A program made the translations under genes and the position numbers. From a virus (Duplodnaviria; Heunggongvirae; Uroviricota; Caudoviricetes), in the IMG/VR virus record IMGVR_UViG_3300035660_001437: a stretch of DNA of 64,000 nucleotides. The stretch is one strand, 5' to 3'. Numbering within the stretch: position 1 is the stretch's first letter; every line of letters starts with the position of its first letter. Positions 49,734 to 64,000 of this stretch are shown in pieces. The notes beneath the pieces are model-generated. The model was not told the DNA's origin and did not search any database. It saw nothing but the letters and a program-made list of their open reading frames with translations.

Positions 49734-51178
49734 AGATTTTGTGGCTTTGCCCGCCAAGTAAAGTCGAGGGCGAATACCCACTTGTTGGGCAAAATCGCTG
49801 GTTCAAATACCTTCCTTTTAAAGCGAATTTTATTTATCCGATTATCGCTGCAGAAGGCGTCACGCTTATAAAGAACGCGGGTCACGAAATAGACTTTTTG
49901 GAAGCGCCTGCAGAGCAAAAGAGCATGGTAGATGTTCTCCAGCAAATATGGAAAAAAGGTTACGACCTCGTAATCATGGAGGGCAGGACTGCTATAATTA
50001 CGTGGATTTGGCAAGTCGCGAAAACAATAAAGAGCACCAGCATCAGAACAAAAGTGGCGCTGTACGGCGACCACGTGATAGTGAGGCCTCATGAAAGCTT
50101 GCAGAATGGAATAGACTACATTATTGACTGCGGCGACTACGATTATGGCGCTTTTAAACTCGTAGAAGAGCTCTCAAAGACCGGATACGCAAATCCTATA
50201 TTCAGCGAAAATATCATGAAAAACCTCGATGATTTGCCATTCGCGGACAGAGATTTGGTGCCGTGGCACAACTACTTCGAGTCGTGGCGTCACAGAGATA
50301 AATTTGGTTGGTATCAGAGCGGGCGGGGATGCTGGGCAAAATGTACGTTCTGCTCTTGGGTTTACACTTTTTACGGCCATACCATCAGGCTTTTCTCTCC
50401 GAAAAGAATCGCAGACGAAGTGCAGTACGCAACGGAAAAATGGGGTATTGAGGAATACCTCGATGACGCAGACACGTTCATTCCAAAACCGTGGGGCGTT
50501 CAATTTGCGAAAGAGCTCGAGGGCAGAGAGATTGAAATACTATGGAACGTGCAAACTCGCGCGGATACCGCGCTTACCGCCAATGAAAGTGATTGGAAGT
50601 TAATGCGAGACAGCGGGTTGAGAGTAGTAAAGCTCGGCGTCGACGGCGGTAACGAATACACGCTCAACAAAATACAAAAGGGGTACAGAATGGAAGACGC
50701 AGAGAATGCGGTAAAGTTGCTGAAGAAAGCAGGCATAGAAGTCCACATAAACATGATTATTGGCTGGCCTTGGGAAACGAAAAAGGAAGCTTACGGCGTG
50801 ATAAAGTGGGTCAAGCGGTTGAAACCGAATCAGGCGCAGTTTTCTCTTATAGAACCGTTCATCGGTACGCCGATTTTCCAAGAAGCAATAGATAATAAAT
50901 GGTTCGTGAACGCACCGCAAGATTGGGACAAATACGACATGAAGACGCCTATTTTGCAAGGAGAAATGAGCGCCAAGGAAATAGCAAAATTGCACAGGGA
51001 CGCGTGGAAGATGTTTTACTTGAACCCGAGGTTCATAATATATCAGCTTGAAAAATCAACTAAATTAGCTTTCGAAGAAAGAAATCTTGACAGCTTCAGA
51101 CATATTTGGAGAGGGTACAAAGGAGTTACAGAGGGGCACATGAAGGCGGTTAGCACAGGGGATACGTCTAATGAATAA
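49730..51178 (+). CDS. B12-binding radical SAM enzyme
   Basis: Likely starts at MKILWLCPP (ATGA overlap with upstream stop; the track ORF begins at 49631 with an in-frame extension). N-terminal B12-binding-like Rossmann region, then radical-SAM CxxxCxxC (GCWAKCTFCSW). Confidence 0.7.
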   Translation: MKILWLCPPSKVEGEYPLVGQNRWFKYLPFKANFIYPIIAAEGVTLIKNAGHEIDFLEAPAEQKSMVDVLQQIWKKGYDLVIMEGRTAIITWIWQVAKTIKSTSIRTKVALYGDHVIVRPHESLQNGIDYIIDCGDYDYGAFKLVEELSKTGYANPIFSENIMKNLDDLPFADRDLVPWHNYFESWRHRDKFGWYQSGRGCWAKCTFCSWVYTFYGHTIRLFSPKRIADEVQYATEKWGIEEYLDDADTFIPKPWGVQFAKELEGREIEILWNVQTRADTALTANESDWKLMRDSGLRVVKLGVDGGNEYTLNKIQKGYRMEDAENAVKLLKKAGIEVHINMIIGWPWETKKEAYGVIKWVKRLKPNQAQFSLIEPFIGTPIFQEAIDNKWFVNAPQDWDKYDMKTPILQGEMSAKEIAKLHRDAWKMFYLNPRFIIYQLEKSTKLAFEERNLDSFRHIWRGYKGVTEGHMKAVSTGDTSNE

Positions 51179-51827
51179 ACTGTCAAATCTTAAAATACCA
51201 AAAAATGTCGCAATTCTTGCGGTAGTGATTGGATTCGTATTTGTGTCCGTTTATTTCGTCTTGCTTTTCATACCGACAGAAGCAATAATATCTGTTGCCA
51301 GCATAACTAGTATCGGCGGCTCTCACCCGCTTGGAATTTGCGCTTTTATAGGCATGAACGTTTACGCGGCATATAGGTTCGCCAGGCTGGCGAAACTAAA
51401 TCCGAATTCCTCTATTGGTGAGAAGATATTGGCGAAAGTTATTGCAGTAGGAGCGGGAATGTCAGTGGCCCACTCTTTTTTTTACATGTGCGACATGTGT
51501 TCAATACCGACTTTCATAGTTAGAGAAGGAATTGAAGTCCTGCCAAGAATAAGCTATTTGGGCTGGATATGGAATCATGATTTGGGATTTATGAGGTCGA
51601 TGGGATTCCAACTAGTCGTGCTGTACGCTTACAGGAAGTTCATAAATTGGAAGTCGCTCATTGCGATAATCCCTCTAATGTTAACCCTCGCCTTTTACAC
51701 GTACTTCCTCTTTAGCTTCACCGGAATGCACCCACTCGTAGGTGAAACTAGAGCTCTGTTTTTCCTTTTCAGCTACATCCCAACCTGGATTATCTTCTAT
51801 TGGGCATTTGCCAGGTTCTTGAGGTGA
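51171..51827 (+). CDS. polytopic membrane protein
   Basis: 218 aa, about 6 TM helices. Confidence 0.45.
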   Translation: MNKLSNLKIPKNVAILAVVIGFVFVSVYFVLLFIPTEAIISVASITSIGGSHPLGICAFIGMNVYAAYRFARLAKLNPNSSIGEKILAKVIAVGAGMSVAHSFFYMCDMCSIPTFIVREGIEVLPRISYLGWIWNHDLGFMRSMGFQLVVLYAYRKFINWKSLIAIIPLMLTLAFYTYFLFSFTGMHPLVGETRALFFLFSYIPTWIIFYWAFARFLR

Positions 51828-51834
51828 TGAGACG

Positions 51835-52929
51835 TTGAACATTATAGAGCGGATTTTTTGGACAATTCCAAACGTAAACCTATTTGCCGGGAGTCTTAAC
51901 ATTGTTGGTGCCGTTTGGTTCTTTTGCTTGTTTGCTTATGCCTACAGGAGATTCAGACTCGGCTTTCCGCAAACTACTGCAATTTCTCTTGCTTTCATCA
52001 TATCTTTGTTTACGCACTACCTCTTAGATGAATCTTCCGTCATTATTGTTTGGATAATGTACCATTTTGAGTATAATCTTTTCTTGAGCAAAATTCCAAT
52101 ATATATCAGCATGATTATAGCGTTTTATATCATTGCGAGATTTGCGAGGCCGCATCTCAAGGTGGATAGAAAAACAGTTGCTATGTTCGTGACGGTGTGC
52201 CTGTTCGATATGTTTGTATTTTACGTGCTTGTCTCAAATTATGGAACAGCGGGATACAGGAGTTATGACTCTCCAGACAGAGAAATAGCTTTTTGGACTT
52301 TCTATCCTCTTGCAAAAGTTATGTGGTTCGGCTTCTTTTTTACTATGTGGAAAAAGAGAGAATTGTTTGGTCTTGATTTCTTGCAAAAGTACGGAATTGG
52401 TGAGGCGTACATGCTTTGCGCTCTAAAACGATTGTTGAGAAAAATCAAAAAAGAGTTTAACATACATCAGATTTCAGAGATTCTAACAAATGAGTCGTCT
52501 GTAGACTTTCCCGATAGGGACTGGGAAATTGGCGAAAATTCAGAACTTTTATTTGTTTTCAGACCGACTGGCGATGCGATGAACAAGGTGAAAAACAGCG
52601 GCGCAAAATATGTGCTGCTTGCAGCGACAAACAAAAATCATTTCTTGCGCATGGTCAAAAGGCTGCATAGTTTGCTGGGTACAAAAGGAGAAGTTTATGC
52701 GACAAAAAAAGAGCTGAAAGAACTGGCAAAAAAGCACGGGTTTGAACCAATAAAAGACGGGTATTACGACTCGCCGCCTTGGGTCGACCACTCTACACGC
52801 GTTATCGTACCTGCAAAGAAACTTAGGATTGACTTGAATGACGTAAAGTCTTTATTATTTTTTGAGCTCTTTAACTCCAGGTTTACGTCTCACCATCCAT
52901 ACGTTCTGGCCAGGAGGAATGCGAGATGA
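51835..52929 (+). CDS. membrane protein with C-terminal soluble domain
   Basis: 364 aa; N-terminal about 200 aa polytopic, C-terminal soluble. Confidence 0.5.
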   Translation: MNIIERIFWTIPNVNLFAGSLNIVGAVWFFCLFAYAYRRFRLGFPQTTAISLAFIISLFTHYLLDESSVIIVWIMYHFEYNLFLSKIPIYISMIIAFYIIARFARPHLKVDRKTVAMFVTVCLFDMFVFYVLVSNYGTAGYRSYDSPDREIAFWTFYPLAKVMWFGFFFTMWKKRELFGLDFLQKYGIGEAYMLCALKRLLRKIKKEFNIHQISEILTNESSVDFPDRDWEIGENSELLFVFRPTGDAMNKVKNSGAKYVLLAATNKNHFLRMVKRLHSLLGTKGEVYATKKELKELAKKHGFEPIKDGYYDSPPWVDHSTRVIVPAKKLRIDLNDVKSLLFFELFNSRFTSHHPYVLARRNAR

Positions 52930-53675
52930 CTGACTTGCCGAAGATAATGCTGTCGAAAGCTCTGTCCAATCTGATGCTTTTAGGAGGAAAAATAAAGTGG
53001 GCATGCGAGAGAAATTGCGCAACGCTACCTGATAGCAAAATAATTTATTTTTATCCAGGAGATAGAGTAAACGTTTACGGCTATTTGACAACTATATGGA
53101 AATATAACGTCTACGGAGAAATAGAAAAAAATGGGCTGGTAGTTGACGCTGGGGCAAGCATAGGTGTTTACAGCTTGAAAGTTGCAGACATCGCATCCAG
53201 AGTTATCGCTGTAGAGCCGGTGCCGAGAATATTCACGATGCTCGAGAAAAATATAGCGGCAAACATGGTGACAAACGTTATTCCGGTAAACCTGGCTTTA
53301 AGCAATTATGATGGCTCTATAGAGCTGCATTTAACGTCGCAGCTTTTCGGAGAGGGACATGAAATTTCTCCGCTGCACGTTCCGAAAAGTAAAATAGTAG
53401 TTCCGTGCGCTAAATTGGACACGCTCATGAAAAATCTCAAGGTAGACGAAATCACAAATCTCAAAATCGACATAGAGGGGCACGAGCTTTATCTACTTGA
53501 CGGTTCGAAAAGTCTATTATCGCGAGGTTCAATAAAGAATATGTCTATTGCTGTTTATCATTTCAAGGACGAAGAAATGCAGGTTCGAAAGTTTTTGGAG
53601 ATTTACGGCTACAGCACCACTTCCAAGTTCTTCTTTGACGGCGACATAATACTCTATGCGAGGCTAAGAAGATGA
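52926..53675 (+). CDS. FkbM-family SAM-dependent methyltransferase
   Basis: VVDAGASIGVYSLKVA SAM-binding motif typical of FkbM family; 249 aa. Confidence 0.55.
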   Translation: MTDLPKIMLSKALSNLMLLGGKIKWACERNCATLPDSKIIYFYPGDRVNVYGYLTTIWKYNVYGEIEKNGLVVDAGASIGVYSLKVADIASRVIAVEPVPRIFTMLEKNIAANMVTNVIPVNLALSNYDGSIELHLTSQLFGEGHEISPLHVPKSKIVVPCAKLDTLMKNLKVDEITNLKIDIEGHELYLLDGSKSLLSRGSIKNMSIAVYHFKDEEMQVRKFLEIYGYSTTSKFFFDGDIILYARLRR

Positions 53676-54331
53676 GCGTCGGAATAGTTATACCCACTTT
53701 AAACGAAGAAAAGAATTTAGAGAAACTTCTTCCTGCGCTTAGAGAGTATTTTAACGGCGCGAAAATAATCATCGTGGACGACCAGAGTAAAGATGCAACG
53801 GTTGACGTTGCGAGGAGTTACGATTGCATCGTTCTCAAAGCGTACCAAAGAAGAGGTCTTGGCAACAGCTATAAAGAAGGATTATTGACAGCATTGACTT
53901 TGGATTGCGAAATAATAGTGCAATTAGACGCAGACCATCCCGCGCGTCCGGCTTTTGAAATGGTTAACACACTTTTGGCAAAAGAAGACGACATGATAAT
54001 TGGAATTGAAACCGGTAGCAGGACGTTGCACAGCAAAGTGGCGAGTTGGATTGCAAGAAATTATCTCGGCCTTGATTTCAAACAACCGACTTGTGGGTAC
54101 ATGGTGTTCAGCGCAGGTTTCTTAAGCAGACTCGACGTTTCAACTCTTAAATCAAGAGGAGATGCGTTCCATTTGGAGCTTCTCTACAAAGCAAGCAAAA
54201 TGTCGTCGAAAATAGAAGAAGTCAGATTCCAAGGCGTCGCGCATGAAAAAGCTTCTTACAATAGAGTTTTGCGCTGGCTTTGGGAGCTGTTTTTAATGCG
54301 CTGGAGGCAGAGAAAAGCTTATAAACCTTAA
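53672..54331 (+). CDS. family-2 glycosyltransferase (dolichyl-phosphate sugar synthase-like)
   Basis: MSVGIVIPTLNEEKNL...KIIIVDDQSKD pattern of Dpm1/GtrB-like GT2. Confidence 0.6.
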   Translation: MSVGIVIPTLNEEKNLEKLLPALREYFNGAKIIIVDDQSKDATVDVARSYDCIVLKAYQRRGLGNSYKEGLLTALTLDCEIIVQLDADHPARPAFEMVNTLLAKEDDMIIGIETGSRTLHSKVASWIARNYLGLDFKQPTCGYMVFSAGFLSRLDVSTLKSRGDAFHLELLYKASKMSSKIEEVRFQGVAHEKASYNRVLRWLWELFLMRWRQRKAYKP

Positions 54332-54588: not shown

Positions 54589-54858
54589 ATGCGTGCGCAT
54601 ACGTTAAACCGAGGACTTATTATGGTATGGCGCTGCAATAAATGCGGGTTAGAGCTAAAGCCTGAAGATAAGATGCCAACAAAGATGCTTGAGAGGTTGC
54701 TGAAAGACTCGCGCTGCCCTAAAGACATCAAGCGTGCTTTCAAATACGGCATGGTTTGTCCGGAGTGCGGGAGAAAGCTGAGGATTATTGGCATTTACCT
54801 GTGCCCGAACTGTGAGGCAATATGTTTAGAAGGAGCGGAGCATATTGAAGCCTTTTGA
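54589..54858 (+). CDS. zinc-ribbon protein
   Basis: CNKCG...CPECG...CPNCE. Confidence 0.4.
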   Translation: MRAHTLNRGLIMVWRCNKCGLELKPEDKMPTKMLERLLKDSRCPKDIKRAFKYGMVCPECGRKLRIIGIYLCPNCEAICLEGAEHIEAF

Positions 54859-55663
54859 AGAGCTTTCAATAAGCGGAAAATGGGCCATAGAACATCCTGG
54901 GTATTCGAGAGAATACCGCAGAACGCAGAAGTTTAGAGAACGGCAAAGAAAATATCACAAGTGGTATTTTAGACATCTCGAATCCGCAAGGAAGCGCGGC
55001 GAAAAGTGGCGAAGGGAGCATCCCGAGTACAATAAAGAATATTTCGCAAGGTCGGAAGTTAAAGATAAGATGAGAGAATATGTGAGAAAATGGCAGAAGG
55101 ATTTGAAAGAAGAAGTCTTTTCTCATTACTCAAGCGGCGCGCCGGAATGTGCCTGCTGCGGAGAAATGAGAATTGAATTCCTGACCATTGACCACATTGG
55201 AGGCGGAGGGAATAGGCATAGAAAAGAAATAGGTGGCAGCTCGACGATTTATTTATGGCTCAAGCGAAACAATTATCCGCCAGGATTTAGAGTTCTCTGT
55301 TTTAACTGCAACTTCCTAGTATTCAAACAGAAAGTGAGATGCGCAAAATATCCTCGCCATCAAGGGCGGAGGATTAATCTTAGGCTGGAGGTCTTGTATC
55401 ATTACTCTAACGGTGCATCTGTCTGTAAGTGCTGCGGCGAGGGCAATATTGACGTCTTGACTATTCACCATGTTGGAGGAGGCGGGCTAAAACATCTTGA
55501 AGAAATAGGCGGAGATATTTGCGGCTGGCTCAAACGCAACAATTACCCGCCGGGCTTCCAGGTGCTGTGCTGGAACTGCAATGAGGCAAAAGCCCATTAC
55601 GGCTTCTGCCCGCACGAAATTGAGAGAGCAAGGGAAGAGTTTAAGAAAATTTGTATCGTCTAG
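54845..55663 (+). CDS. tandem HNH-motif endonuclease-like protein
   Basis: Two copies of CxCCGE-x5-(F/V)LTI(D/H)H(I/V)GGGG...YPPGF(R/Q)VLC(F/W)NCN. Confidence 0.55.
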   Translation: MKPFEELSISGKWAIEHPGYSREYRRTQKFRERQRKYHKWYFRHLESARKRGEKWRREHPEYNKEYFARSEVKDKMREYVRKWQKDLKEEVFSHYSSGAPECACCGEMRIEFLTIDHIGGGGNRHRKEIGGSSTIYLWLKRNNYPPGFRVLCFNCNFLVFKQKVRCAKYPRHQGRRINLRLEVLYHYSNGASVCKCCGEGNIDVLTIHHVGGGGLKHLEEIGGDICGWLKRNNYPPGFQVLCWNCNEAKAHYGFCPHEIERAREEFKKICIV

Positions 55664-55949
55664 CTTCTGAAGCAGAGTTTTCAACGAGCGAATTGGCAGC
55701 ACACACCCAAGTGAGCTTCGTAAGAAATAGCGCTCTTAGCAACTAGTTTTTAATATCGTTTTCCGCAAAGTATCGTAGAAATATTTAAATAGTAGCTTCA
55801 TCACTTAGGTGCTGAATATGTGATAAGAAAGTGATTCACATGGCAAAAAGAGCGAAATTGTTGCTTGACAAGCACCATAAAAAACACAGAGCCAGAGTGC
55901 GCAAATGGCGTTCTAAGCATCCCGGCAAAACCTACAAGAAAATCGGCCC

Positions 55950-56153
55950 ATGTTGGAAGTGGGTAGCTCCAAAGAGGCGATAAAGTTGCCAAAGACCAAG
56001 CACGTCAAACTAGGAGACGGGCTCGACAAACTTTTCAAGGAGAGAGCGACGTACAGCTCGTCGGCACACAAAGCAAAAGGCTCAACCTGGCTAAAAGAAC
56101 CCCCGAAATACGGCACACAAAAAGCCGGCGGTAAAAGACGGAAGAGGAGGTGA
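55950..56153 (+). CDS. small basic protein
   Basis: 67 aa ending GGKRRKRR. Confidence 0.35.
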   Translation: MLEVGSSKEAIKLPKTKHVKLGDGLDKLFKERATYSSSAHKAKGSTWLKEPPKYGTQKAGGKRRKRR

Positions 56154-56157
56154 TTGC

Positions 56158-56367
56158 GTGGTGTACAGTTGGAGAGGTAAAAAGCCACTTCCGATGGGCG
56201 GGTTCGTCACGGAGGAAATCAGCGGCGGCAAAGTTGGCAAAAAATCTTCTAAGAAACGTGCAAAGAAAGTGTGGACAGGCCCAATCAAATCGCCTGCCAA
56301 ATCGTCTTTCCACAAATCCATCGAAAAGGGCAAGAGAGCGAAGAAGAACTGGACTGGAGGGTTCTAG
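56158..56367 (+). CDS. small basic protein with repeated KRAKK(V/N)WTG motif
   Basis: 69 aa; KRAKKVWTGP and KRAKKNWTGGF. Confidence 0.4.
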   Translation: MVYSWRGKKPLPMGGFVTEEISGGKVGKKSSKKRAKKVWTGPIKSPAKSSFHKSIEKGKRAKKNWTGGF

Positions 56368-56736
56368 ATGGCAGTGGGCTTTAGAAAAAGAGTGAGAGGC
56401 ACTGCCAGGCAGATAGGAAAAGCTTTTCCTGTTTTTACAAAGAGGAAACTGCCCACGAAATTCGGAGGCAAAAGAAGATTGAAGCCGAAAGACACGATTG
56501 TTCTGCAATTTGAATACCCGGACGAGGCTGAAGCTTTCAGAGATGCTTACTATGCAGTAGGCGCGGTGTCTGACTTCCCAGCGCCCGAAGATGAAAAGGT
56601 GGTTAAAAACACAGTCATTCTCAGGTTCGACAAAGAAATCATAGAAGACAATCCAGACCTTGCAGACGACACGCTTGAATACCTCAAAAGAGCAAGTTTC
56701 TTTACGGTCAAGCCGAAAAAAGTGTGGACGGCCTAG
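56368..56736 (+). CDS. basic-leader paralog family member A
   Basis: N-terminus MAVGFRKRVRGTARQIGKAFPVFTKRKLP; SD GGAGGG upstream; C-terminus ends KPKKVWTA. Confidence 0.55.
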   Translation: MAVGFRKRVRGTARQIGKAFPVFTKRKLPTKFGGKRRLKPKDTIVLQFEYPDEAEAFRDAYYAVGAVSDFPAPEDEKVVKNTVILRFDKEIIEDNPDLADDTLEYLKRASFFTVKPKKVWTA

Positions 56737-57057
56737 GTGGTTGACATGGCAATCAAAGCAAAAAACAAGAGCTGCATAGCCGGCGCGCTGAGAGGCAAAG
56801 TCGGCTGGCCACTTGTCAGCAAGCGAAGGAGAGGCGGAAAAAAGCCGAAATATTGGATTCAAGAAGCAATCGGTGTCAAGGGCTCGCTGAGAGAAGAAGT
56901 CATGCGGAGGAAGGGAAGAGCCGGTTTTGACTCGCGCGGCAGGATAAAAGCGAGTGTCATAGAAGAAATCATACGCAAAGACGGCTTCAAAAAGCAGGCA
57001 GTCCTGGCAAGAACGCTCCGCGGGCTGAAAAAGCGAGGTAAAAGGAGGGAGAAGTAA
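56737..57057 (+). CDS. small basic protein
   Basis: 106 aa, K/R-rich. Confidence 0.4.
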   Translation: MVDMAIKAKNKSCIAGALRGKVGWPLVSKRRRGGKKPKYWIQEAIGVKGSLREEVMRRKGRAGFDSRGRIKASVIEEIIRKDGFKKQAVLARTLRGLKKRGKRREK

Positions 57058-57059
57058 AA

Positions 57060-57302
57060 ATGCCGAATCCCGTAAGAGCAATGTTTTGGGGACTGCGGAA
57101 ACAGGGGTACTCAGCTGCAGAAGCAGAAAAGCGAACTAGAGAATATTTTTCGGCGAAAAAAGCACGCAAAAGTGATAAGAAAATGCCGCAAAGGAGAATG
57201 GGAAAACCGAGGACAGATGCAGAAAGGAGAGCTAGGCACATGGCTATATATGGTACTGAAAAGTTACCGCCTAGAGGAACAGGGCTGCGAAGGAGAGGCT
57301 GA
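57060..57302 (+). CDS. small basic protein (MPN...)
   Basis: 80 aa; SD AGGAGGG upstream. Confidence 0.4.
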   Translation: MPNPVRAMFWGLRKQGYSAAEAEKRTREYFSAKKARKSDKKMPQRRMGKPRTDAERRARHMAIYGTEKLPPRGTGLRRRG

Positions 57303-57593
57303 AAGTGCCGAAAACAAACATAAAAGCAAAACATATCTTCATAAGAAACAAAAAGACAGGCACGTCAAAATGGGTGACGAAAGCGCAGTGGAACAAAATC
57401 AAAAAGACTCCCCCGAAAAAGAGGCCATGGAGAAGAGTTCGAGCGTTTTGAGGCGAAAGTAAATGCCAAAAAGAAATAAAAGCAGAAAATACGTGCACGT
57501 CGTAACTAAAGAAACTCCAGTTCCAACGCATCTTTTCCTGACCAAAAAAGAATACAATAAGCTCTCCAGAAAAGCACCAAAAAGATTCCAAAA

Positions 57594-57842
57594 GTGGAGA
57601 TACTAATGACAATCGAGTTTTACAAGAGAAAAAAGCAAGCGAAGAACTGGGCTAAGCAAGTGAAAAGATTTGCAAGAAGAGACATAAAAGTCGCCAGAGT
57701 CAGAGTTGCAAATGTAGGTTTTTTGAATAACGCCGGCGGAAGAAAGATAGGCGGAAGTGGCAAGTTCAAACCAGGAGAAGTGGGCTACGTTCTAGCTTTC
57801 AGAGGCATGAGCGAGGCAGGATTGAGGAGGGCGCGAAAGTAA
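57594..57842 (+). CDS. small basic protein
   Basis: 82 aa. Confidence 0.4.
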   Translation: MEILMTIEFYKRKKQAKNWAKQVKRFARRDIKVARVRVANVGFLNNAGGRKIGGSGKFKPGEVGYVLAFRGMSEAGLRRARK

Positions 57843-58002
57843 AATGCCATGGACAACTAGGAAAATGAAGCTCAACAAGAGGGGCGACAAGCTGGGCACA
57901 TTAGAAGGGATATATTCTCTGAGAACCGTGAAATGGAACCCGAAATCTGGAATACTCAAGCTTCGGTATTTCAGGCCAAAGAAAAAGCGAGGGAGAAAAT
58001 AG

Positions 58003-58203
58003 ATGCCGTACAAAATCAGGTTCTATCCAAAAGGCGTGAAGAAACGAAGCCTCCTTAGAAAGATGGCCAAGCCAGGCGCGATAAGCGTATCCAGTGAAGC
58101 GACTTGGCCATCAAAGCAAAAAGCTAAAAATTCAAAACTGTACAAAACTGCATTCTGGTCTGGTTACAGCCCGAGAGTTGAAAAAGTGAGGCGAAAGAAA
58201 TGA
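58003..58203 (+). CDS. small basic protein (MPYK...)
   Basis: 66 aa. Confidence 0.4.
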   Translation: MPYKIRFYPKGVKKRSLLRKMAKPGAISVSSEATWPSKQKAKNSKLYKTAFWSGYSPRVEKVRRKK

Positions 58204-58388
58204 CATACAGACTGAGAGTTGCAACGAGAATATCCAAAAAGACCGGCAGACCCGCCGGCCCCAGAATGACCAGCGTCAAATATCGAAAACTAAAATCAGC
58301 CAGGATAGACGCAAGAGCTATCGCAAATCCATACGATATCGTAAAAGTTGACAAAAAAGGAAAAGTCGTAAAGAGGTATTACAGATGA
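58200..58388 (+). CDS. small basic protein
   Basis: 62 aa; ATGA overlaps both sides. Confidence 0.4.
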   Translation: MTYRLRVATRISKKTGRPAGPRMTSVKYRKLKSARIDARAIANPYDIVKVDKKGKVVKRYYR

Positions 58389-58951
58389 GCAAAATCGGTT
58401 TCAGAACGCGCAAGCGTGGCACTCCTAAACAAATAGGGAAGAAATTTCCGGTGCTGGAGAAAAAGCCGCTGCCTAAACTGAGAGTTGGCGGCAAGACTAT
58501 CATGAAGGTAAAAGAGGGCGATAGATTCGTTGCAGCCAGAGACGTTCCGATAAGAAACACCGAGCTCAGATGGAGAGACCCCGTAGGTCTGATGGAGAAA
58601 CTGCATTCGGGAAAATTCATAGTCGACAAGGTGATTGGAGACGAAGTTTGGCTTGCAGACGCTGATTGGGAGCCAACCGGCAGAATCACTTTTCACTCTT
58701 CAAAGCACGGCCACATCATATTCAAGAAAGACCTGAAGAAATTGAGGCGATGGAGAAAATTGCGAGATGCCGGCAGTTTAGGAATAATGACACCGCCTTC
58801 TCAAGAGACATATCGCAGAAGAGGTACTGCAGCAGGCGTTGATATTCCAGTAGAGCCTCGCAAGGAGAGGCTCGAAGAAATAGCTGAAAGAACGAGACGA
58901 AGAATGGCGTCGAAGCCAGAAAGAATGAGAAAAAAGAGAGGATTTGTATGA
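58385..58951 (+). CDS. basic-leader paralog family member B
   Basis: MSKIGFRTRKRGTPKQIGKKFPVLEKKPLPKL. Confidence 0.55.
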   Translation: MSKIGFRTRKRGTPKQIGKKFPVLEKKPLPKLRVGGKTIMKVKEGDRFVAARDVPIRNTELRWRDPVGLMEKLHSGKFIVDKVIGDEVWLADADWEPTGRITFHSSKHGHIIFKKDLKKLRRWRKLRDAGSLGIMTPPSQETYRRRGTAAGVDIPVEPRKERLEEIAERTRRRMASKPERMRKKRGFV

Positions 58952-59355
58952 AGTTCAAAAAGCGAATTAGAGGGACGCCAAAACAAATAGGAAAGCCGTT
59001 TCCTATTGGCGAAAAGAGAAAGCTGCCGAAGCTGAGAATGGCACGAAGAAAACTAACGCCTTATGACTTGCCATACGAGAAAGACATATCAATTGGGCCG
59101 TACACGATTCACTGGCGCTATCACGAATACGCCGATGACTACGCAGTGAGCTTGTGGTTAGGCGACAAGTGCATAGATTGGCGTATGCCAAAAACCAAGA
59201 GAGACACAATAAAGGCAATCAAAGAGTTCAGAAAAAGAGCTTCTGAAGAGTTGGGGAAGTCAGAAAGGGCAACCGAATGGTACGCCAGGCGCTATCCAAT
59301 GATGTTCAGAGGCGGCGGCAAGCGCGCCGCGTACTACGGCGGAAAAACAAGATGA
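58948..59355 (+). CDS. basic-leader paralog family member C
   Basis: MKFKKRIRGTPKQIGKPFPIGEKRKLPKL. Confidence 0.55.
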   Translation: MKFKKRIRGTPKQIGKPFPIGEKRKLPKLRMARRKLTPYDLPYEKDISIGPYTIHWRYHEYADDYAVSLWLGDKCIDWRMPKTKRDTIKAIKEFRKRASEELGKSERATEWYARRYPMMFRGGGKRAAYYGGKTR

Positions 59356-59369
59356 GAGGGATGCTGTAA

Positions 59370-59576
59370 ATGCCAAAAACAAGGCGAAAACTGATGGGAA
59401 CTAAAAAGCCTTATGGTTATGTTGTTAGTGGCTCAAGAGTTAAGCATGGAGTTTATTGTAAGACCCTGACTGCGGCAAAAAAGGAAATGAATAGGCAAAT
59501 GTTCAGGCTTCGCAGCAAGGAATCTGGAATTAGAGAAGTTTCAAAAGAAGAATGGCTAAAGCGGAGGAAAAAGTAA
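59370..59576 (+). CDS. small basic protein (MPKTRRK...)
   Basis: 68 aa. Confidence 0.4.
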   Translation: MPKTRRKLMGTKKPYGYVVSGSRVKHGVYCKTLTAAKKEMNRQMFRLRSKESGIREVSKEEWLKRRKK

Positions 59577-59655
59577 TGCGCGAGAAATGGAAAAAGAAGC
59601 GGCAGCGAAGAGAGAAAAAGAAGAGAGAGAAAAGAAAGGAGAGATATAAATAAAA

Positions 59656-60303
59656 GTGCAAGAACTAAAGCCATACGACGAGCTTTCTCAAGGCGGAAAA
59701 TGGGCTAGAGACCATCCAGAATACAAAGAACACAACAAAAAACATTTAAAAGAATACAAAAGAGAATACCGCCTAAACAATAAACTCCGGGTTTTAGAGC
59801 ATTACTCCAATGGTGCTATGGCATGCGCAGTTTGCGGAAAAAAGAACATTAACTTTCTGACGGTAGACCACATAAATGGCGGAGGATGCCGGCATAGGAG
59901 AGAAGTAAATGCCGATATGTTGTATTGGCTCGAACGCAAATACAGGACAACCGGCATTTGGCCTAAAGGATACCAAGTGCTGTGCGCCAACCATAATTTC
60001 ATAAAGAAATTTGAAGAGAACGGTTATGCACCAAATAACCAAACTTTGGCAATAGGAAGGTTGATAATCGAAATACGCCATTTGTTGGGAGAAAAATGCG
60101 AAATTTGTGGGTTTGAAGACGCAAGAGCGCTACACATAGACCACGTTAATGGCGGTGGCTTGGAAGAGCTAAGAAGCTTCAGCGGCACTTATGCCTATTA
60201 TAAAAACATTCATGACAAAATCCTGGCCGGCTCAAGAGATTATCAGCTTTTGTGCGCGAATCATAATCTTGAAAAGGAATTAAGCAAAAGAGAGGCTAGG
60301 TGA
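59656..60303 (+). CDS. tandem HNH-motif endonuclease-like protein
   Basis: CAVCGKKNINFLTVDHINGGG...YQVLCANHNF and CEICGFEDARALHIDHVNGGG...YQLLCANHNL. Confidence 0.55.
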   Translation: MQELKPYDELSQGGKWARDHPEYKEHNKKHLKEYKREYRLNNKLRVLEHYSNGAMACAVCGKKNINFLTVDHINGGGCRHRREVNADMLYWLERKYRTTGIWPKGYQVLCANHNFIKKFEENGYAPNNQTLAIGRLIIEIRHLLGEKCEICGFEDARALHIDHVNGGGLEELRSFSGTYAYYKNIHDKILAGSRDYQLLCANHNLEKELSKREAR

Positions 60304-60354
60304 AAAAACATTGAGCTTAACGGAAAACAGAGAGGTACAATAGAGGTATAAGTA

Positions 60355-60810
60355 ATGCCAAAAACAGCAAAATACCCCGTTGAAAAAAGAGGGGCAAGCT
60401 ACCAGCGCTATCTCGGAAAACTGCGCAGGAGAAGCAAGTGGAAAAAGCGGGCGCGCAGGCCAAAAAGAGAGAAAGCCGCTCCTATACTCGTCGTTGAGAA
60501 GAAAACCAAGAGAGTTCTAGTGAAGAAAGAGAAATTGCCAACCAGTATGCGAGAGCTGGCAGCTGCTGTGTCAAAGCCGGCAAAGCATAAAGATTTCAAA
60601 AAGTGGAGACTAGAAAAGCCAAAACCGATTTCTGTCGTCAAAAGAGCTACCATGAAAGAAATCGCGACAATGAGAAGAGCGATGGGCATATCTGCAAGCA
60701 AAGCGAGGAGACTTCTCAGGATGGCTCAAAGAACCGCGCAGCCGGAATACAAACCAAAAAGAAAGAAGAAAATATGGCTACCCAAAACAATTCAGAGAGG
60801 ACTGAGATAA
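60355..60810 (+). CDS. basic protein (MPKTAK...)
   Basis: 151 aa, about 35% K/R. Confidence 0.45.
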   Translation: MPKTAKYPVEKRGASYQRYLGKLRRRSKWKKRARRPKREKAAPILVVEKKTKRVLVKKEKLPTSMRELAAAVSKPAKHKDFKKWRLEKPKPISVVKRATMKEIATMRRAMGISASKARRLLRMAQRTAQPEYKPKRKKKIWLPKTIQRGLR

Positions 60811-61047
60811 ATGCCGACATTTCTCCAGGAAACTTTTAGCTTCGCTCCTCACTCCGTTCGGAGAAAGCGTAAAAGAGCGTATACCAGAAAAAAGTCGCGG
60901 GTTAAAAGGAGAGCAAAGACAACTCGAAAGCGCAGCGGGTATGCTTTTGGAAAAGAAGGCGAAGCAATTATTAGGACAACAGGCGCGCTCATGGCGACAG
61001 GCGCAGCGATAGGAACAATGGGTCTTATAGGCAAACTCGGTAAATGA
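60811..61047 (+). CDS. small basic protein with C-terminal Gly/Ala-rich hydrophobic segment
   Basis: 78 aa. Confidence 0.4.
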   Translation: MPTFLQETFSFAPHSVRRKRKRAYTRKKSRVKRRAKTTRKRSGYAFGKEGEAIIRTTGALMATGAAIGTMGLIGKLGK

Positions 61048-61058
61048 GGTGGAAATAG

Positions 61059-61280
61059 TTGCCAATAGGCAAAAAGCTGCCTCGATACAAGGTGATTCGC
61101 TGCAATGCGACCAAAGAGAGGCATTTAATCACAAGAATTGACAGAGACAAATATCCTCGCAGGCACGTTCCTGTTGACGTCATTTTTAAAGCCATTCGCA
61201 GGCACTACAAAAAATACCATCCAGTTTTGTTCAAAAGAATGATTAGGAAAGCGCAATATACGAAGAGGAAGCGCAAATAA
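61059..61280 (+). CDS. small basic protein (MPIGKK...)
   Basis: 73 aa. Confidence 0.4.
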   Translation: MPIGKKLPRYKVIRCNATKERHLITRIDRDKYPRRHVPVDVIFKAIRRHYKKYHPVLFKRMIRKAQYTKRKRK

Positions 61281-61405
61281 TGGGAAGGCAAGAATTGACT
61301 AAGAGGCAAAAGCGAATATCGTGGAAGAAGCGATATTATGAACTTCTTAGTGAGCTTCTTAAACAAAGCAAACCGAGGAAGAAAAAGCGATAGGGGAGCG
61401 CGCTC

Positions 61406-61708
61406 ATGCCGCGAAGAAGACAAAAGCCAAAAGTATCCATTAAAAAGAGATTGGTAAATGGCAGCATAAAGTTCACGTGGACTAACGATGGTTGGTTAGC
61501 TGTTGTCGCAAAGCCTATCCCTCGCTCTACGTTGTGGGCGCTAAGCAAACGCGGCAAAAAGCGAGGCATGAAATTTTATAATCTATATTCAAAAGACCCG
61601 CGCGAGCCAAAATATTTCACCATTCCGTTCAGCGATGAAGAGCGGAAAAATATAGCTAGCGGTCTCGACCCGCACGGGTTGCCATTTGGCAGGAGAAAAA
61701 AGAAATGA
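61406..61708 (+). CDS. small basic protein (MPRRRQK...)
   Basis: 100 aa. Confidence 0.4.
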   Translation: MPRRRQKPKVSIKKRLVNGSIKFTWTNDGWLAVVAKPIPRSTLWALSKRGKKRGMKFYNLYSKDPREPKYFTIPFSDEERKNIASGLDPHGLPFGRRKKK

Positions 61709-61902
61709 GTCTTAAAACAATAAGAAGAACAGTCAAAAAATCAATTACCGACGAGAAGCAAGCTTCTCCTCACTACAGAAAACTGGCATCCAAGATGAGC
61801 AAAGCCGGCCTTAAGAAAGAGGCCAAAACAGTTCGAGGAATAGCGAAAGTTGAAACGCAGCACAGGAAAAAGCTGAAGAAGATTTTGAGGAAACTGAAAT
61901 GA
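61705..61902 (+). CDS. small basic protein
   Basis: 65 aa. Confidence 0.4.
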   Translation: MSLKTIRRTVKKSITDEKQASPHYRKLASKMSKAGLKKEAKTVRGIAKVETQHRKKLKKILRKLK

Positions 61903-62453
61903 AATGGCTCAAACGCAAGCGCGGAACAGATAGACAGAAAGGAAAGCCGTTTCCGGTAAGAGGCAAAAGAAAGCTTCCTGAGATTGTTTACCCGATAAAG
62001 TACGACAAGAAAAAAGCCGTAAACAGTAAGCGTGCGTTTTATCGCTTCTTCGGCCATCTAACTCGCTCAGCATACGAGAGATTGAAAGATAACAAATTGC
62101 CTGGAAATGACGCCTATTTTCTTCTCGATGATAACACAATCTTTGCGGGAGAACTTCCTGAGAACAAGAAAGCGTGGCGTGGTTTAATCAAAAAAGCCGT
62201 AAAAGCTGAAAAACCTCTAGCTTACGGCGTAATTACGCCGATATGGATTTCTCCTCCAACAAAAGGGGTGTTGCCAAGCCGCCATCCGTTCAGGAAAGAA
62301 GGTGTGATTATAACGGTGTATTCGCCGCGCGAGCAGAAGGCGTCTTTCGTGGAATACGAATTTATTACTCCCAAGCTAATAGAAGTGAAGAAGCCAGTTG
62401 TTTGGGAGAAGTTCGAAGACAGTCTCGTCGGGAACGTTTATGGGGTGAAATGA
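61899..62453 (+). CDS. basic-leader paralog family member D
   Basis: MKWLKRKRGTDRQKGKPFPVRGKRKLPEI. Confidence 0.55.
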   Translation: MKWLKRKRGTDRQKGKPFPVRGKRKLPEIVYPIKYDKKKAVNSKRAFYRFFGHLTRSAYERLKDNKLPGNDAYFLLDDNTIFAGELPENKKAWRGLIKKAVKAEKPLAYGVITPIWISPPTKGVLPSRHPFRKEGVIITVYSPREQKASFVEYEFITPKLIEVKKPVVWEKFEDSLVGNVYGVK

Positions 62454-63091
62454 ATTTGAAGTGGAAGAAAAGGGTTAGAGGCACTCGCAGGCAAATAGGG
62501 AAACCGTTTCCTGTTGGCGAGAAAAAGCGGCTGCCCAGATTCGAAGTGCCGTCGACAAAAGAGTGGCCGCGCATAAAGCTCTATTACAATTACATCGAGC
62601 AGGTCGGCCAGAAGATGCTTGCGGAGGGCTTCGACCCAAAAACAATCGAGAAAATCCTGTCTATGGCGTCTAAAAAGAAAGTGCGAAACTTCAATGAGAT
62701 GGTGATGGACATACAGCTTCCGCTGGCAAAAGACAAGAGAGTAGACATCGACACACTCGATACTTTTATTGGAAGATTGATAAAATATGATGTGAGAGCC
62801 GGCACTCTTTCTGGAGGCAAACGCAAGCCGACCAGCGTCGCAATTACGTACCGCGACGAGTTCGGAATCGAGCGAAAAAAGAGGGTGAAAGTGAAAGATA
62901 CGCCAGAGTTTTACCAGCAAGTGAGAGCAAAAGGGTATGAAATTCACGACGTATCGGGCAGAAGAGGCAGTTCCCAATGCGCAGCCGAGAGACGTCCGAG
63001 CATGACAGGCGGGAAGTTCCTTGAAAAATTGGCATGGATGTTGAGACATCCAGGAGACCCTATGCCAGAGTGGATTCCTGTTGGCGATTAG
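62450..63091 (+). CDS. basic-leader paralog family member E (contains an R1 repeat copy in frame near the C-terminus)
   Basis: MNLKWKKRVRGTRRQIGKPFPVGEKKRLPRF; ATGA overlap with D; R1 repeat at 62970-63006 is translated as SSQCAAERRPSMTG. Confidence 0.5.
   Translation: MNLKWKKRVRGTRRQIGKPFPVGEKKRLPRFEVPSTKEWPRIKLYYNYIEQVGQKMLAEGFDPKTIEKILSMASKKKVRNFNEMVMDIQLPLAKDKRVDIDTLDTFIGRLIKYDVRAGTLSGGKRKPTSVAITYRDEFGIERKKRVKVKDTPEFYQQVRAKGYEIHDVSGRRGSSQCAAERRPSMTGGKFLEKLAWMLRHPGDPMPEWIPVGD
62970..63006. repeat. R1 dispersed repeat, forward, inside a CDS
   Basis: GTTCCCAATGCGCAGCCGAGAGACGTCCGAGCATGAC, identical to the copy at 39721-39757. Confidence 0.65.
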
Positions 63092-63105
63092 GAGATTGAG
63101 CGCAG

Positions 63106-63693
63106 TTGAAGTGGAAAACTCGCACGCGGGGAAGCGCCAGGCAAATCGGGCAAAAGTTCCCGGTAAGAGAGAAGAAAAAGCTGCCGAAACTGATACAAAC
63201 AACATTTCCGTCTGGCAGAAAGGGGTTAGAGCCATTTTATAGAAAAGCTCAATCTTACAGAGAAGCTCTCGCAAAGCGAATGGCGAGAAAGCCTGTGTTG
63301 ATGCGCTATTATGTAAGCCCGGAGGGATACGGAAGCGACCAATTCGGAATGATACAATTTTACTACGACGGCGCTTTTCTCTCAAATGCGGTGAGGCTGG
63401 TAACTCACGATAAGTGGGTCGGCAGCTGGGACAAGAGCAAGCCGTGGATTTACATTGACGACGATGTACCGCCAAAATATTGGAAGTCTCTAGCAATTCA
63501 CGAATCAGTTGAAAAATATCTCAAAGAAAAATATGGTTTGGACGAGAACGCAGAGGGACACGAGGCATCTGAAGAGGTTGAAAGGAGAAGATTCTGCAAA
63601 GAGAGCAAATGCCCGGCAGATTGGGACGAATATTCGAAAATAGTTGAGAGAGTGCACAGGGCGGAGATGAAATATGCCGAAAGAAATAGTTGA
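63106..63693 (+). CDS. basic-leader paralog family member F (TTG start)
   Basis: (M)KWKTRTRGSARQIGQKFPVREKKKLPKL; SD AGGAG 13 nt upstream. Confidence 0.5.
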   Translation: MKWKTRTRGSARQIGQKFPVREKKKLPKLIQTTFPSGRKGLEPFYRKAQSYREALAKRMARKPVLMRYYVSPEGYGSDQFGMIQFYYDGAFLSNAVRLVTHDKWVGSWDKSKPWIYIDDDVPPKYWKSLAIHESVEKYLKEKYGLDENAEGHEASEEVERRRFCKESKCPADWDEYSKIVERVHRAEMKYAERNS

Positions 63694-63931
63694 CACTTTT
63701 CCGAATACACACGCCGGTCTCGCAACCTCATCGGTTGTTTTGAGGTACATGAGAAAGAAAGACCGCAGCCACAGGTACAGCAGGCATTTCCCGCGCGGTC
63801 TGCGGTCGATAAAGTTTCACATCGTAAAAGAATCGTGGCATAAGCCGAAGAAGAGGATTAAAGATACGGTAACAAAAAAAAGAAAAAGAAGAGAAAAAAG
63901 GAGAAGAGAAAGATTAGGTGAAAGAAAATGA
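63674..63931 (+). CDS. small basic protein (MPKEIV...)
   Basis: 85 aa ending KKRKRREKRRRERLGERK. Confidence 0.4.
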   Translation: MPKEIVDTFPNTHAGLATSSVVLRYMRKKDRSHRYSRHFPRGLRSIKFHIVKESWHKPKKRIKDTVTKKRKRREKRRRERLGERK

Positions 63932-64000
63932 GAAAAATTAAAAAGAGACGTGAAATCTCTTTCAAGGCAACACCTAGAAAGCCAAAGATAGTTCACATTT

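Follow-up and report, generated by a model that had tools for sequence, protein, structure and literature searches.

A basic N-terminal leader family joined to unrelated cargo domains in a probable archaeal virus-like mobile element

Six leader genes in an array of small basic genes

The last part of the window (the whole 64,000-nt stretch of DNA analyzed here) contains an array of about 25 tightly packed small genes on the + strand (55831..64000), most of whose products are very basic (K+R 20–36%). Embedded in this array are exactly six + strand genes, starting at 56368, 58385, 58948, 61899, 62450, and 63106, whose products begin with the same motif of ~30 aa, [WF]xxRx[RH]G[TS]xxQ[IV]GKxFP[VI]..KKxLP, here called the leader. 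Searching the six-frame translation of the window with a profile of the six copies returned exactly these six genes (E 1.4e-19 to 3.9e-17), and the next best match had an E-value of 0.28. The six copies agree without exception at R, R, G, Q, G, F, P, K, L, and P. Thus, the opening module reported for these genes in the first-pass annotation is confirmed, with its length corrected from 35 to about 30–32 aa. The C-terminal parts, described there as mutually unrelated, are indeed not homologous to each other (best BLASTP E 0.096). At the DNA level, the leaders show only ~65% identity per column with varying third positions, and therefore the set does not represent a recent DNA repeat.

A GGAGG-like motif precedes each of the six leader starts. 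ATGA stop/start overlaps, initially noted for three tandem genes, are found at four of the six starts (58385, 58948, 61899, and 62450). The genes 62450 and 63106 are separated by 14 nt, and 63106 begins with TTG. The start at 62450 is an internal ATG within a longer mechanical ORF (62243–63091); a Shine-Dalgarno-like motif of its own precedes it, and the relative of this gene on contig L021 starts at the leader.

Leader gene 1 (56368..56736; 122 aa) encodes the leader in codons 1–32 (56368–56463), directly followed by GGK (56464–56472) and an acidic cargo of about 85 aa; its product is identical to protein P0001, and the L021 ortholog is 92% identical. Leader gene 2 (58385..58951; 188 aa; product identical to P0003) has an ATGA overlap at each end and GGK after the leader at 58487–58495. 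The C-terminus of leader gene 3 (58948..59355; 135 aa) contains two GGK motifs (59314–59322 and 59338–59346) inside a recurrent '...YPMMFRGGGKRAAYYGGK' module that is common to P0007, P0013, P0026, and P0043. Leader gene 4 (61899..62453; 184 aa; product identical to P0005) is a QKGK variant without GGK and has a 60% identical ortholog in L021/L023. Leader gene 5 (62450..63091; 213 aa) carries a three-module cargo with GGK separators at 62813–62821 and 63008–63016, and its modules also occur in P0002, P0030, P0025, P0031, and P0041. Leader gene 6 (63106..63693; 195 aa) has as its cargo a folded domain of zincin-like fold that contains an HExxE...H...E motif.

The array is interrupted by an HNH-type endonuclease gene (59656..60303, + strand), a paralog of 54845–55663; the assignment is based on PHROG 2255 (HNH endonuclease), which matches two members, while Pfam HNH matches are weak. 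L021 and the L026 island each carry a similar gene. The following gene (60355..60810, + strand) encodes a basic protein of 151 aa with an N-terminal 'KYPvEkRGpSYQrYLxKLRRRSKW' module (HMM E 1.6e-5) and, behind it, a leader-like stretch (WKKRARRPKREKAAPILVVEKK) that the leader HMM does not score as significant (E 4.1; not among its hits at E ≤ 0.01). The same N-terminal module directly precedes a true leader in P0068 and is C-terminal in P0024, P0074, P0075, P0079, and P0104. Both synteny and protein-level conservation of the array are seen in a 79-kb relative contig (L021/L023). The array also extends beyond the window, as a contig identical to the window end (L020) has a seventh leader gene ~1 kb downstream.

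The leader family and its predicted fold

A search of 1.84 billion representative proteins identified 113 metagenomic protein clusters with the leader. In all 117 leader occurrences, R, G, Q, G, and F are unchanged. Most occurrences (98/117) are N-terminal, starting within residue 5; however, P0012, a protein of 1234 aa, carries three internal motif copies in tandem, and N-terminal position is therefore not obligatory. Across 46 distinct DNA versions, every synonymous codon is used for the invariant residues, showing that the leader is conserved at the peptide level. Leader genes are densely clustered in tandem, with 10 copies over 12 kb of L021 and 7 over 6.5 kb of L017, and were seen only on mobile-element-like contigs or in one small island. 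In agreement with the initial impression, the leader matched no family in Pfam or PDB, and searches of phages, plasmids, and GTDB gave no match. Likewise, a strict pattern search showed that it is absent from 185,579 reference genomes, IMG/VR, and known phages and plasmids. The leader is a real, previously undescribed family.

Two independent AF2 runs gave the same hairpin for the leader with pLDDT 90–97; for leader gene 1, the strands E4-7 and E19-22 were modeled with pLDDT 92–97. The hairpin core is conserved and consists of aromatic and aliphatic residues (W/F, I, F, V), and the linker behind it is modeled as disordered (pLDDT below 50). The mean net charge of the leader is +8.9 per 32 aa. 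The leader is thus predicted to be an autonomously folding, strongly basic mini-domain, a two-stranded β-hairpin with a long loop, behind which come the KKxLP tail and a flexible linker. That G, Q, G, F, and P never vary is also compatible with a specific protein–protein docking site.

Cargo modules, GGK joints, and the VP2-like module

The combination of one leader with diverse cargo extends from the six genes to all 113 clusters, whose cargo regions split into 56 BLAST components, 44 of them singletons, i.e., at least 56 cargo groups. Cargo domains are folded, range from 50 to 350 aa, and include enzymes; Pfam matches comprise VP2 (three), ParB_N (three), DUF5661 (two), Zn_peptidase_2 (two), M78, and SprT. 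Leader-free copies of the same cargo domain also exist. Most cargos have a basic character of their own (median +5.3 per 100 aa), so that they do not depend on the leader for charge.

GGK is the commonest tripeptide in the cargo regions, with 70 copies observed versus 9 expected (7.8-fold enrichment), and K follows the GG dipeptide in 70 of 138 cases. The array at 55831..64000 contains 9 GGK motifs versus 1.7 expected, whereas the 55.8 kb to its left show no enrichment. GGK sits exactly where stand-alone VP2 proteins begin and also where the zincin-like domain ends, marking leader/cargo and cargo/cargo module joints. It is present in only 39 of the 113 cargo regions, and BLAST alignment boundaries did not coincide with it significantly (6 observed vs. 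3.4 ± 1.7). Two window genes carry it directly after the leader, but only 9/113 representatives have it within 7 residues of the leader end. Thus, a cleavage site, which the first-pass annotation had hoped to define from the leader alignment, did not emerge as a conserved feature.

The gene adjoining leader gene 1 (56737..57057, + strand) encodes a VP2-like small basic protein of 106 aa, in which an N-terminal extension of 32 residues, the last of them RRRGGK (GGK at 56833–56841), precedes the VP2-homologous module. The match of this product to Pfam PF25632 is under the gathering score (E 9.4e-4), but hhalign aligns the module to SSV1 VP2 with a probability of 96.8% (E 3.1e-10), and tblastn recovers SSV VP2 and gp10 of the Thermus phage Tsatsa. 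In the latter genome, the stand-alone VP2 homolog sits among structural genes. Based on these similarities, the GGK-bounded module is homologous to the small basic fusellovirus protein VP2, a DNA-binding protein of the virion (PMC10541130). A homologous module is leader cargo in three clusters. SSV1 VP2 and Tsatsa gp10 are free-standing proteins of 66–74 aa, whereas the module described here is preceded by the extension or by the leader and further modules, beginning right behind GGK; the leader is not part of VP2.

GGK may be a proteolytic processing site which frees modules such as VP2. In adenovirus and African swine fever virus, clan CE cysteine proteases process core-protein precursors and polyproteins at Gly-Gly-X. 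In both cases, basic, DNA-associated proteins have GG-X at the borders of separate virion units. However, the motif here is specifically GGK, no clan CE or other protease was identified, and neither the hosts nor the elements are related.

Comparison with a close relative places a recombination breakpoint at the leader/cargo junction. The upstream sequence and leader of gene 63106 are 97.8% identical at the DNA level to one gene of the relative contig, whereas its cargo matches the next gene on that contig. In addition, the extra modules of the relative contig begin at GGK exactly at the end point of gene 63106.

Possible roles of the leader

The window arm with the leader arrays also encodes a large secreted protein (1386 aa), glycosyltransferases, and a B12-binding radical SAM protein (49631–51178). 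Genes for capsid, portal, terminase, and maturation protease were not detected in the window or in the continuation of the relative, nor was a scaffold or HK97-type capsid gene. The element belongs to a group of uncultivated, virus-like mobile elements, probably of archaea, and its viral nature, and hence the term packaging, rests on VP2 homology and overall gene content.

Our preferred interpretation, to which we assign a probability of roughly 0.4, is that the leader acts as an address or tether that brings diverse cargo to the nucleoprotein or virion core of the element, with cassettes shuffled by recombination. Leader-bearing proteins would converge on a single destination, for which the DNA or nucleoprotein core of the element itself is the most likely candidate; both this destination and packaging are what we infer. 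The cargo, i.e., zincin-like peptidase, ParB-like and VP2-like DNA-binding modules and many unknown domains, would travel with the genome, become co-packaged, and reach the next cell. Tandem genes would acquire new leader–cargo combinations by recombining through their similar leaders.

It is rather unlikely that the leader is instead a small DNA- or RNA-binding domain which places enzymes and regulators on nucleic acid in the infected cell, with no packaging or delivery. A basic β-hairpin whose variable positions keep basic character but not residue identity would suit such a domain, as would the location of the leader genes among many other small basic proteins. Candidate cargos would be SprT/Wss1/IrrE-type DNA-dependent metallopeptidases and ParB-like proteins, and the cargo types SprT-like, M78/IrrE, and ParB_N are known to work on DNA-bound substrates. 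However, VP2-like virion modules are among the cargos, and the arrays lie in the secreted-protein/glycosyltransferase arm, where structural genes would be expected by analogy with ANME-1 viruses, for which a two-arm layout has been described (PMC9894754). Moreover, profile searches of Pfam and all PDB chains revealed no similarity to ribosomal-protein or known nucleic-acid-binding motifs, a possibility that had been raised against the initial interpretation.

The first-pass annotation had compared the leader to capsid-targeting sequences. In T4, these tags are carried by the internal proteins IPI-III, Alt, gp67, and gp68 and are removed by the prohead protease gp21; they are about 10 aa long, not basic, form no folded hairpin, and end in an L/I-x-E cleavage site. 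The shared features are a single short N-terminal tag on proteins that are otherwise unrelated but encoded by the same element, the presence of several such genes per genome, and cargo including enzymes potentially useful on arrival in a new host; a VP2-like virion module that adjoins a leader gene or is itself cargo fits as well. Nevertheless, a strict T4-type propeptide, which would dock to scaffold, portal, or capsid, be removed by a maturation protease, and have no DNA-binding role, appears unlikely. A specific protein interface would suit the non-charged residues that never vary (G, Q, G, F, P), the linker behind the tag is predicted to be disordered, and GGK directly follows the tag in the two window genes and 9 representatives. 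On the other hand, the leader is about three times as long, predicted to fold, has a net charge of about +9 and no sequence similarity to the T4 tag, lacks a uniform cleavage motif in most members, and is internal in P0012. With neither a capsid nor a protease gene detected, the analogy is only partly supported.

An assembly module, with hairpins that self-associate or add a strand to a common β-sheet to form one hetero-oligomeric complex, is quite improbable. The confident hairpin prediction with its conserved W/F, I, F, V core, the many paralogs per element, and the three tandem copies in P0012 would favor it, but with a net charge of about +9 each, the hairpins would resist associating with one another unless a polyanion were present.

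Polymorphic toxin/effector systems and MuF-type phage head proteins, which have variable C-terminal domains, resemble the leader proteins in the constant N-terminal module, swappable C-terminal domains, junction recombination, and cargo types including peptidase and nuclease-like domains. The effector analogy drawn earlier is not supported: the secretion machinery and immunity genes typical of such systems were not seen, no known trafficking domain matches the leader, and many cargos are not toxins but small basic modules.

Double-glycine leader peptides are known from class II bacteriocins and Nif11/NHLP precursors such as prochlorosins, in which, as here, tandem paralogs combine a conserved leader with hypervariable C-termini and GG at the junction. 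That the leader is of this RiPP-like type, read by a modifying enzyme (the B12-radical SAM protein) or an export peptidase and cut at GG, is very improbable even though radical SAM genes also lie close to leader genes in L021 and L027: the cargos are not short core peptides but folded domains of up to 350 aa, the leader shows no relationship to known RiPP leaders, GGK seldom directly follows it (9/113) and also occurs between and behind cargo modules, no C39 peptidase or ABC exporter is among the 25 of 44 Pfam families listed for the 72 window ORFs, and the neighborhood of the radical SAM gene, with glycosyl- and methyltransferases and the gene for the 1386-aa secreted protein, fits glycan modification.

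The leader is a conserved peptide module

Six genes on the plus strand of the window, starting at 56368, 58385, 58948, 61899, 62450, and 63106, open with a shared basic module, the leader, as the first-pass annotation had proposed. A profile built from the six copies matched the six-frame translation of the window exactly six times, with E-values from 1.4e-19 to 3.9e-17, and the next match had an E-value of 0.28. Across the six copies, the invariant positions are R, R, G, Q, G, F, P, K, L, and P, and the conserved stretch covers about 30-32 aa rather than the 35 aa originally assigned to it. The parts downstream of the leader, referred to here as cargo, proved as dissimilar as had been described, with a best mutual BLASTP E-value of 0.096. 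The ATGA overlaps reported for the array were found at the starts 58385, 58948, 61899, and 62450; the genes at 62450 and 63106 do not overlap each other. A Shine-Dalgarno-like GGAGG motif is present at each of the six starts; the gene at 63106 begins with TTG and the gene at 62450 with an internal ATG within a longer, mechanically called ORF. A seventh leader gene lies about 1 kb further on, on a contig that is identical to the window end.

Conservation of the leader acts at the peptide level, since its invariant residues vary synonymously. The six leader DNAs are about 65% identical per column and differ at third codon positions. A set of 46 distinct DNA versions of a 17-aa core, drawn from related contigs as well as the window, shows all synonymous codons in use at the invariant residues: R is encoded by AGA, AGG, CGC, CGA, or CGT and G by any of its four codons, with the same freedom at Q, F, and P. 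Together with an Rfam search of the entire window, which found no RNA families, this variation rules out an RNA- or DNA-level signal as the explanation of the leader.

To collect the family, we ran an exhaustive HMMER search over 1.84 billion representative proteins with a cut-off of E ≤ 0.001, which returned 113 protein clusters with the leader. It starts within the first five residues in 98 of its 117 occurrences, whereas in 13 it is preceded by an N-terminal extension of 16-60 aa, which has a conserved pattern of its own in the long-form proteins (KPKWDSRAARIKQ..RRKSK). Three more are internal and all belong to one 1234-aa protein (P0012), so the motif is not strictly N-terminal and polyprotein-like forms exist. 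All 117 occurrences share the residues R, G, Q, G, and F, and the family core reads [WF]-x-x-R-x-[RHK]-G-[TS]-x-x-Q-[IV]-G-K-x-F-P-[VIL], followed by K-K-x-L-P. In P0012, which is a metagenomic protein of low complexity, each internal copy has E-W before it and KKKTLPKPPKI after it.

The earlier failure to place the leader in a known family was confirmed. Pfam gave no match, and a profile of 54 leaders compared with all PDB chains reached a best E-value of 1.5 (topoisomerase III-beta). The leader thus has no significant match in PDB or Pfam to a ribosomal-protein or nucleic-acid-binding motif, a relationship that, together with homology among the C-terminal domains, had been named as fatal to the idea of a novel module. 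As look-alikes, ribosomal proteins, histone tails, HU arms, AbrB/MazE hairpins, and PIP boxes were dismissed for want of a profile match in the same two databases. Known phages and plasmids contained no leader match, a word-indexed protein search with the leader alignment had no matches, and neither two leader-containing alignments nor the DNA pattern yielded confirmed relatives among IMG/VR contigs. A strict DNA pattern of the leader was absent from 185,579 reference genomes and matched 18 metagenome contigs, all from a small number of JGI samples; one GTDB match to the DNA pattern, in an Acidobacteriaceae MAG, is due to chance, as its translation is nothing like the leader. A Sec or Tat signal peptide is ruled out by the lack of a hydrophobic region after the basic stretch: none of 121 proteins has a 19-aa window with a Kyte-Doolittle value above 1.6 in its first 60 residues. 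As judged by these comparisons, the leader represents an undescribed small domain family, absent from Pfam and, by sequence, from PDB.

AlphaFold was run on two different window proteins, encoded by the leader genes at 56368 and 63106, with different alignments. The two models agree in predicting two short strands, x-[FW]-[KR]-x and x-F-P-V, with the RGTxxQIG loop between them. This hairpin has a pLDDT of 92-97 in the first model and of about 90 in the second, in which a linker (pLDDT below 50) connects it to a well-folded cargo domain. Fold searches of the first model against PDB and of the second against BFVD returned nothing significant. The mean net charge of the leader is +8.9 over 32 residues. 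The predicted hairpin could be defined as a new small protein domain family.

Cargo exchange and the GGK tripeptide

Removal of the leader from the 113 representatives left C-terminal regions that fall into 56 BLASTP components, 44 of which are singletons. Pfam domains among the cargo are Fusello_VP2_Capsid (3), ParB_N (3), DUF5661 (2), Zn_peptidase_2 (2), Peptidase_M78, and SprT-like. The cargo of the gene at 63106 belongs to a putative zincin-like family that does not contain the HExxH zinc-binding motif and has HExxE instead, together with a nearly invariant H about 20 residues after it and a further E. With more than 50 unrelated domains, most of them without an assigned function, the cargo list represents a catalogue of candidate delivered effectors.

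Comparison with L021, a contig of a 79-kb syntenic relative, points to exchange at the leader. Window positions 63008-63185, i.e., the region upstream of the gene at 63106 and its first 27 codons, share 97.8% DNA identity with L021 9436-9613, where the leader belongs to a gene whose cargo is different (P0021). The window gene's own cargo has its match in the following L021 gene (P0040), at 83-97% DNA identity, and about 520 bp that are absent from the window relative to L021 comprise the cargo of the first gene and the leader of the second. Since leader and cargo match two successive L021 genes, the leader/cargo junction is a recombination breakpoint between these close relatives; unequal crossing-over within a tandem array of similar leaders would be expected to leave such a trace. 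The breakpoint illustrates how an array with a shared leader produces new protein combinations. The extra modules of P0040 begin at a GGK, exactly where the window protein ends.

GGK is the commonest tripeptide of the cargo regions (70 observed, 9 expected), and half of all GG dipeptides in these regions have K as the next residue. In the window, the arm of basic genes from 55.8 kb on contains 9 GGK compared to 1.7 expected, including those at 56127-56135, 56464-56472, 56833-56841, 58487-58495, 59314-59322, 59338-59346, 62813-62821, and 63008-63016, whereas the other 55.8 kb show no enrichment (6 observed, 5.3 expected). The preceding residue is usually small (A/S/G/T/V) and the one further upstream often basic. 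GGK stands directly after the leader in the proteins of the genes at 56368 and 58385 and in nine representatives, and is also found between modules and near C-termini. In alignments, it clearly coincides with the start of a VP2-like module and with the end of the zincin-like domain, and it flanks a module of about 50 aa in P0041 on either side; a global test of BLAST alignment starts against GGK positions was not significant. By its positions, GGK marks module joints, which may be cut.

The best argument for GGK as the border of a unit comes from the VP2-like module. Directly after the first leader gene, the plus-strand ORF 56737-57057 encodes a small basic protein whose N-terminal extension of 32 aa has RRRGGK at its end; the module behind this extension is homologous to VP2 of the fusellovirus SSV1 (hhalign probability 96.8%, E-value 3.1e-10, 43 columns). 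The corresponding Pfam family, PF25632, matches this ORF with an E-value of 9.4e-4 and 20 bits, under its 27-bit cut-off, and flags three members of the leader family, the best with an E-value of 2.6e-6. The module also comes after GGK in the long-form leader proteins P0032, P0086, P0100, and P0102. Two free-standing homologs, SSV1 VP2 (74 aa) and gp10 of the Thermus phage Tsatsa (66 aa), begin exactly at the position of the GGK junction, suggesting that GGK marks the start of an independent unit. Tsatsa gp10 is encoded among structural genes. VP2 is a basic DNA-binding protein of SSV1 virions, and it is for SSV1 VP2 only that presence in the virion, bound to the genome, is established (PMC10541130, PMC3367457). 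Judging from the GGK junctions, virion proteins that stand alone, such as VP2, may originate from, or be made as, modules of larger precursors.

Candidate role of the leader

The leader finding is real and reaches beyond a local curiosity: the small domain family is new, its modular logic is clear, and a junction motif accompanies it. By analogy, its functional type would be that of a shared N-terminal addressing module with swappable cargo, a known principle. Most likely, the leader serves as an address or tether that would bring the attached protein to a common destination, most probably the DNA or nucleoprotein core of the element. The support for this reading is indirect and comes from the predicted basic hairpin and flexible linker, the VP2-like cargo and neighbour, the DNA-related types of cargo, and the confinement of the family to mobile-element contexts. 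Should the leader prove to be an addressing tag, it would be the first signal of its type reported for such elements and could be used directly to list the DNA-borne proteins of these uncultivated elements and to load foreign proteins onto them.

One rival explanation holds that the leader is a pure protein-docking tag for capsid targeting, in line with the comparison to T4 drawn in the first-pass annotation. As in T4, one short N-terminal peptide is attached to unrelated proteins of one element (six copies in the window; 113 clusters and 56 cargo groups in the family). The T4 tag ends in an L/I-x-E protease cleavage motif, whereas there is no uniform cleavage motif at the end of the leader: aligning the leaders to define a cleavage site revealed no conserved T4-like motif after them, and only 9 of the 113 representatives have GGK within 7 residues of it. 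The capsid-targeting analogy is reasonable but only partly supported, with the shared tag on unrelated proteins upheld and the uniform cleavage motif missing.

A second rival, an intracellular DNA-binding domain with no packaging role, would be consistent with the basic hairpin and the DNA-related cargo. Against it stands the VP2 homology which, as judged by profile comparison, is the only positive link between the array and virions. The leader could also be an oligomerisation hairpin; this would fit the predicted two-strand fold, but the strong positive charge would oppose self-association unless a polyanion is present. A RiPP-like leader is much less likely: double-glycine leaders (bacteriocin/Nif11/NHLP) differ in that the present leader has no Pfam match and its cargos are folded domains of 50-350 aa, and neither a C39 peptidase nor an ABC transporter is among the Pfam families listed for the window.

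Polymorphic effector systems, the other analogue suggested initially, share with the leader family the variable C-terminal domains that are swapped by recombination at the leader junction, as seen between the gene at 63106 and L021. This part of the comparison holds, but the leader, having no Pfam match, does not belong to a known trafficking family, and secretion apparatus or immunity genes are not among the Pfam and PHROG families listed. Core precursors of adenovirus and ASFV resemble the present proteins in having a GG-X motif, here GGK, at the borders of units; no clan CE or other processing protease family is among the Pfam and PHROG matches listed.

Extending the address or tether reading, we can envisage an uncultivated archaeal virus lineage whose nucleoprotein core would be built from modular precursors. 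The hairpin address would load dozens of cargos, including peptidases and nuclease-like domains for the next host, onto the genome, a protease cutting between GG and K would free units such as VP2, and new cargo would be captured by recombination at the leader. Taken as a whole, we regard this scenario as rather unlikely. If its core maturation at GGK were true, the logic would parallel that of adenovirus and ASFV cores and would have evolved independently in the archaeal virosphere.

Organization of the element and its gene array

Coding sequences of the window lie on the minus strand up to about 42 kb and on the plus strand beyond, and GC skew changes sign at the same place. A replication origin or divergent promoters may be located in the switch region (about 41300-42600). 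A 42-bp tandem repeat with 1.9 copies lies at 41342-41422. A Borg-like element was considered because of the two divergent single-strand arms, but the G+C content of 38-49% in 2-kb windows and the single tandem repeat give no support to it. The two-arm layout resembles, by analogy only, that of ANME-1 viruses, whose genomes are split into 'structural' and 'enzymatic' arms (PMC9894754).

The minus-strand arm serves replication and nucleotide functions and encodes a family B DNA polymerase, a eukaryotic-type topoisomerase IB, ThyX, a Dam-type methyltransferase, and a clamp-loader-like AAA protein, as well as a Pol-beta-like thumb domain, NADAR, DUF1643, PadR, and HTH proteins. The polymerase is nearest to those of tailed haloarchaeal viruses, with 23% identity. 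The topoisomerase (8243-9751, minus strand) is full-length, with N-terminal, core, and C-terminal Pfam domains (E-value 1e-60); it is unusual for a prokaryotic mobile element and may be a clue to the host lineage. Also on the minus strand, 17324-17572 encodes a very hydrophobic, almost uncharged two-helix protein of 82 aa with 1% K+R and no Pfam match, a candidate capsid protein. An almost uncharged, very hydrophobic character is general to the major capsid proteins of spindle viruses. The window contains no tRNA genes. Capsid, portal, scaffold, terminase, and protease genes, including a prohead protease, are not among the top 25 Pfam and PHROGs families listed for the 72 ORFs of this partial-genome window or for the 10 ORFs (10 kb) that follow in the relative, a comparison that remote homologs would escape.

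The plus-strand arm begins with a cluster (42581-54331) comprising a 1386-aa protein, two GT2 glycosyltransferases, methyltransferases, and a B12-binding radical SAM enzyme. The 1386-aa protein looks secreted, with an N-terminal hydrophobic segment, and has no Pfam match. A similar transferase/radical SAM cluster precedes or interleaves with leader genes in L021 and in L027, a 27-kb contig. Two paralogous HNH-type endonuclease genes on the plus strand (54845-55663 and 59656-60303), each apparently with an internal duplication, also lie in this arm. The second of them interrupts the leader array, at a point where the relative contig lacks a counterpart; L021 and the island of L026, a 217-kb contig, carry similar genes.

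The array itself (55831-64000, plus strand) consists of about 25 tightly packed ORFs of 45-150 aa with 20-36% K+R. Many of them begin with M-P-(K/R), many are joined by ATGA overlaps, and their protein sequences are conserved in the 79-kb relative. A second recurrent module, KYPxxxRG(P/A)SYQxYLxKL(R)n, forms the N-terminus of the plus-strand ORF 60355-60810, directly precedes the leader in P0068, and forms the extreme C-terminus of P0024, P0074, P0075, P0079, and P0104. Homology of this KYP...RGPSYQ.YL module to the extension of the long-form leader proteins was suspected but not established. AT skew ranges from +0.25 to +0.39 in 2-kb windows over 56-64 kb. Two minus-strand ORFs that overlap the array, 56035-57081 (348 aa) and 62438-63496 (352 aa), are most likely shadow ORFs of the purine-rich coding strand and not genes.

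Leader arrays recur on other metagenome contigs. The 79-kb relative (L021-L023) carries 10 leader genes in 12 kb, L017 (6.5 kb) has seven, and L027 has six among its transferase/radical SAM genes, upstream of a beta-helix protein. L026 (Ga0568894_0000037) contains an island of about 8 kb at 7241-15313, in which three leader genes are accompanied by one HNH and one HTH gene. The island lies between cellular genes, and the rest of the contig is cellular in content (Cas1, aspartate kinase, HcyBio), which points to integration into a host chromosome. The island may represent an integrated minimal relative of the element. The Cas1 gene adjoins the island.
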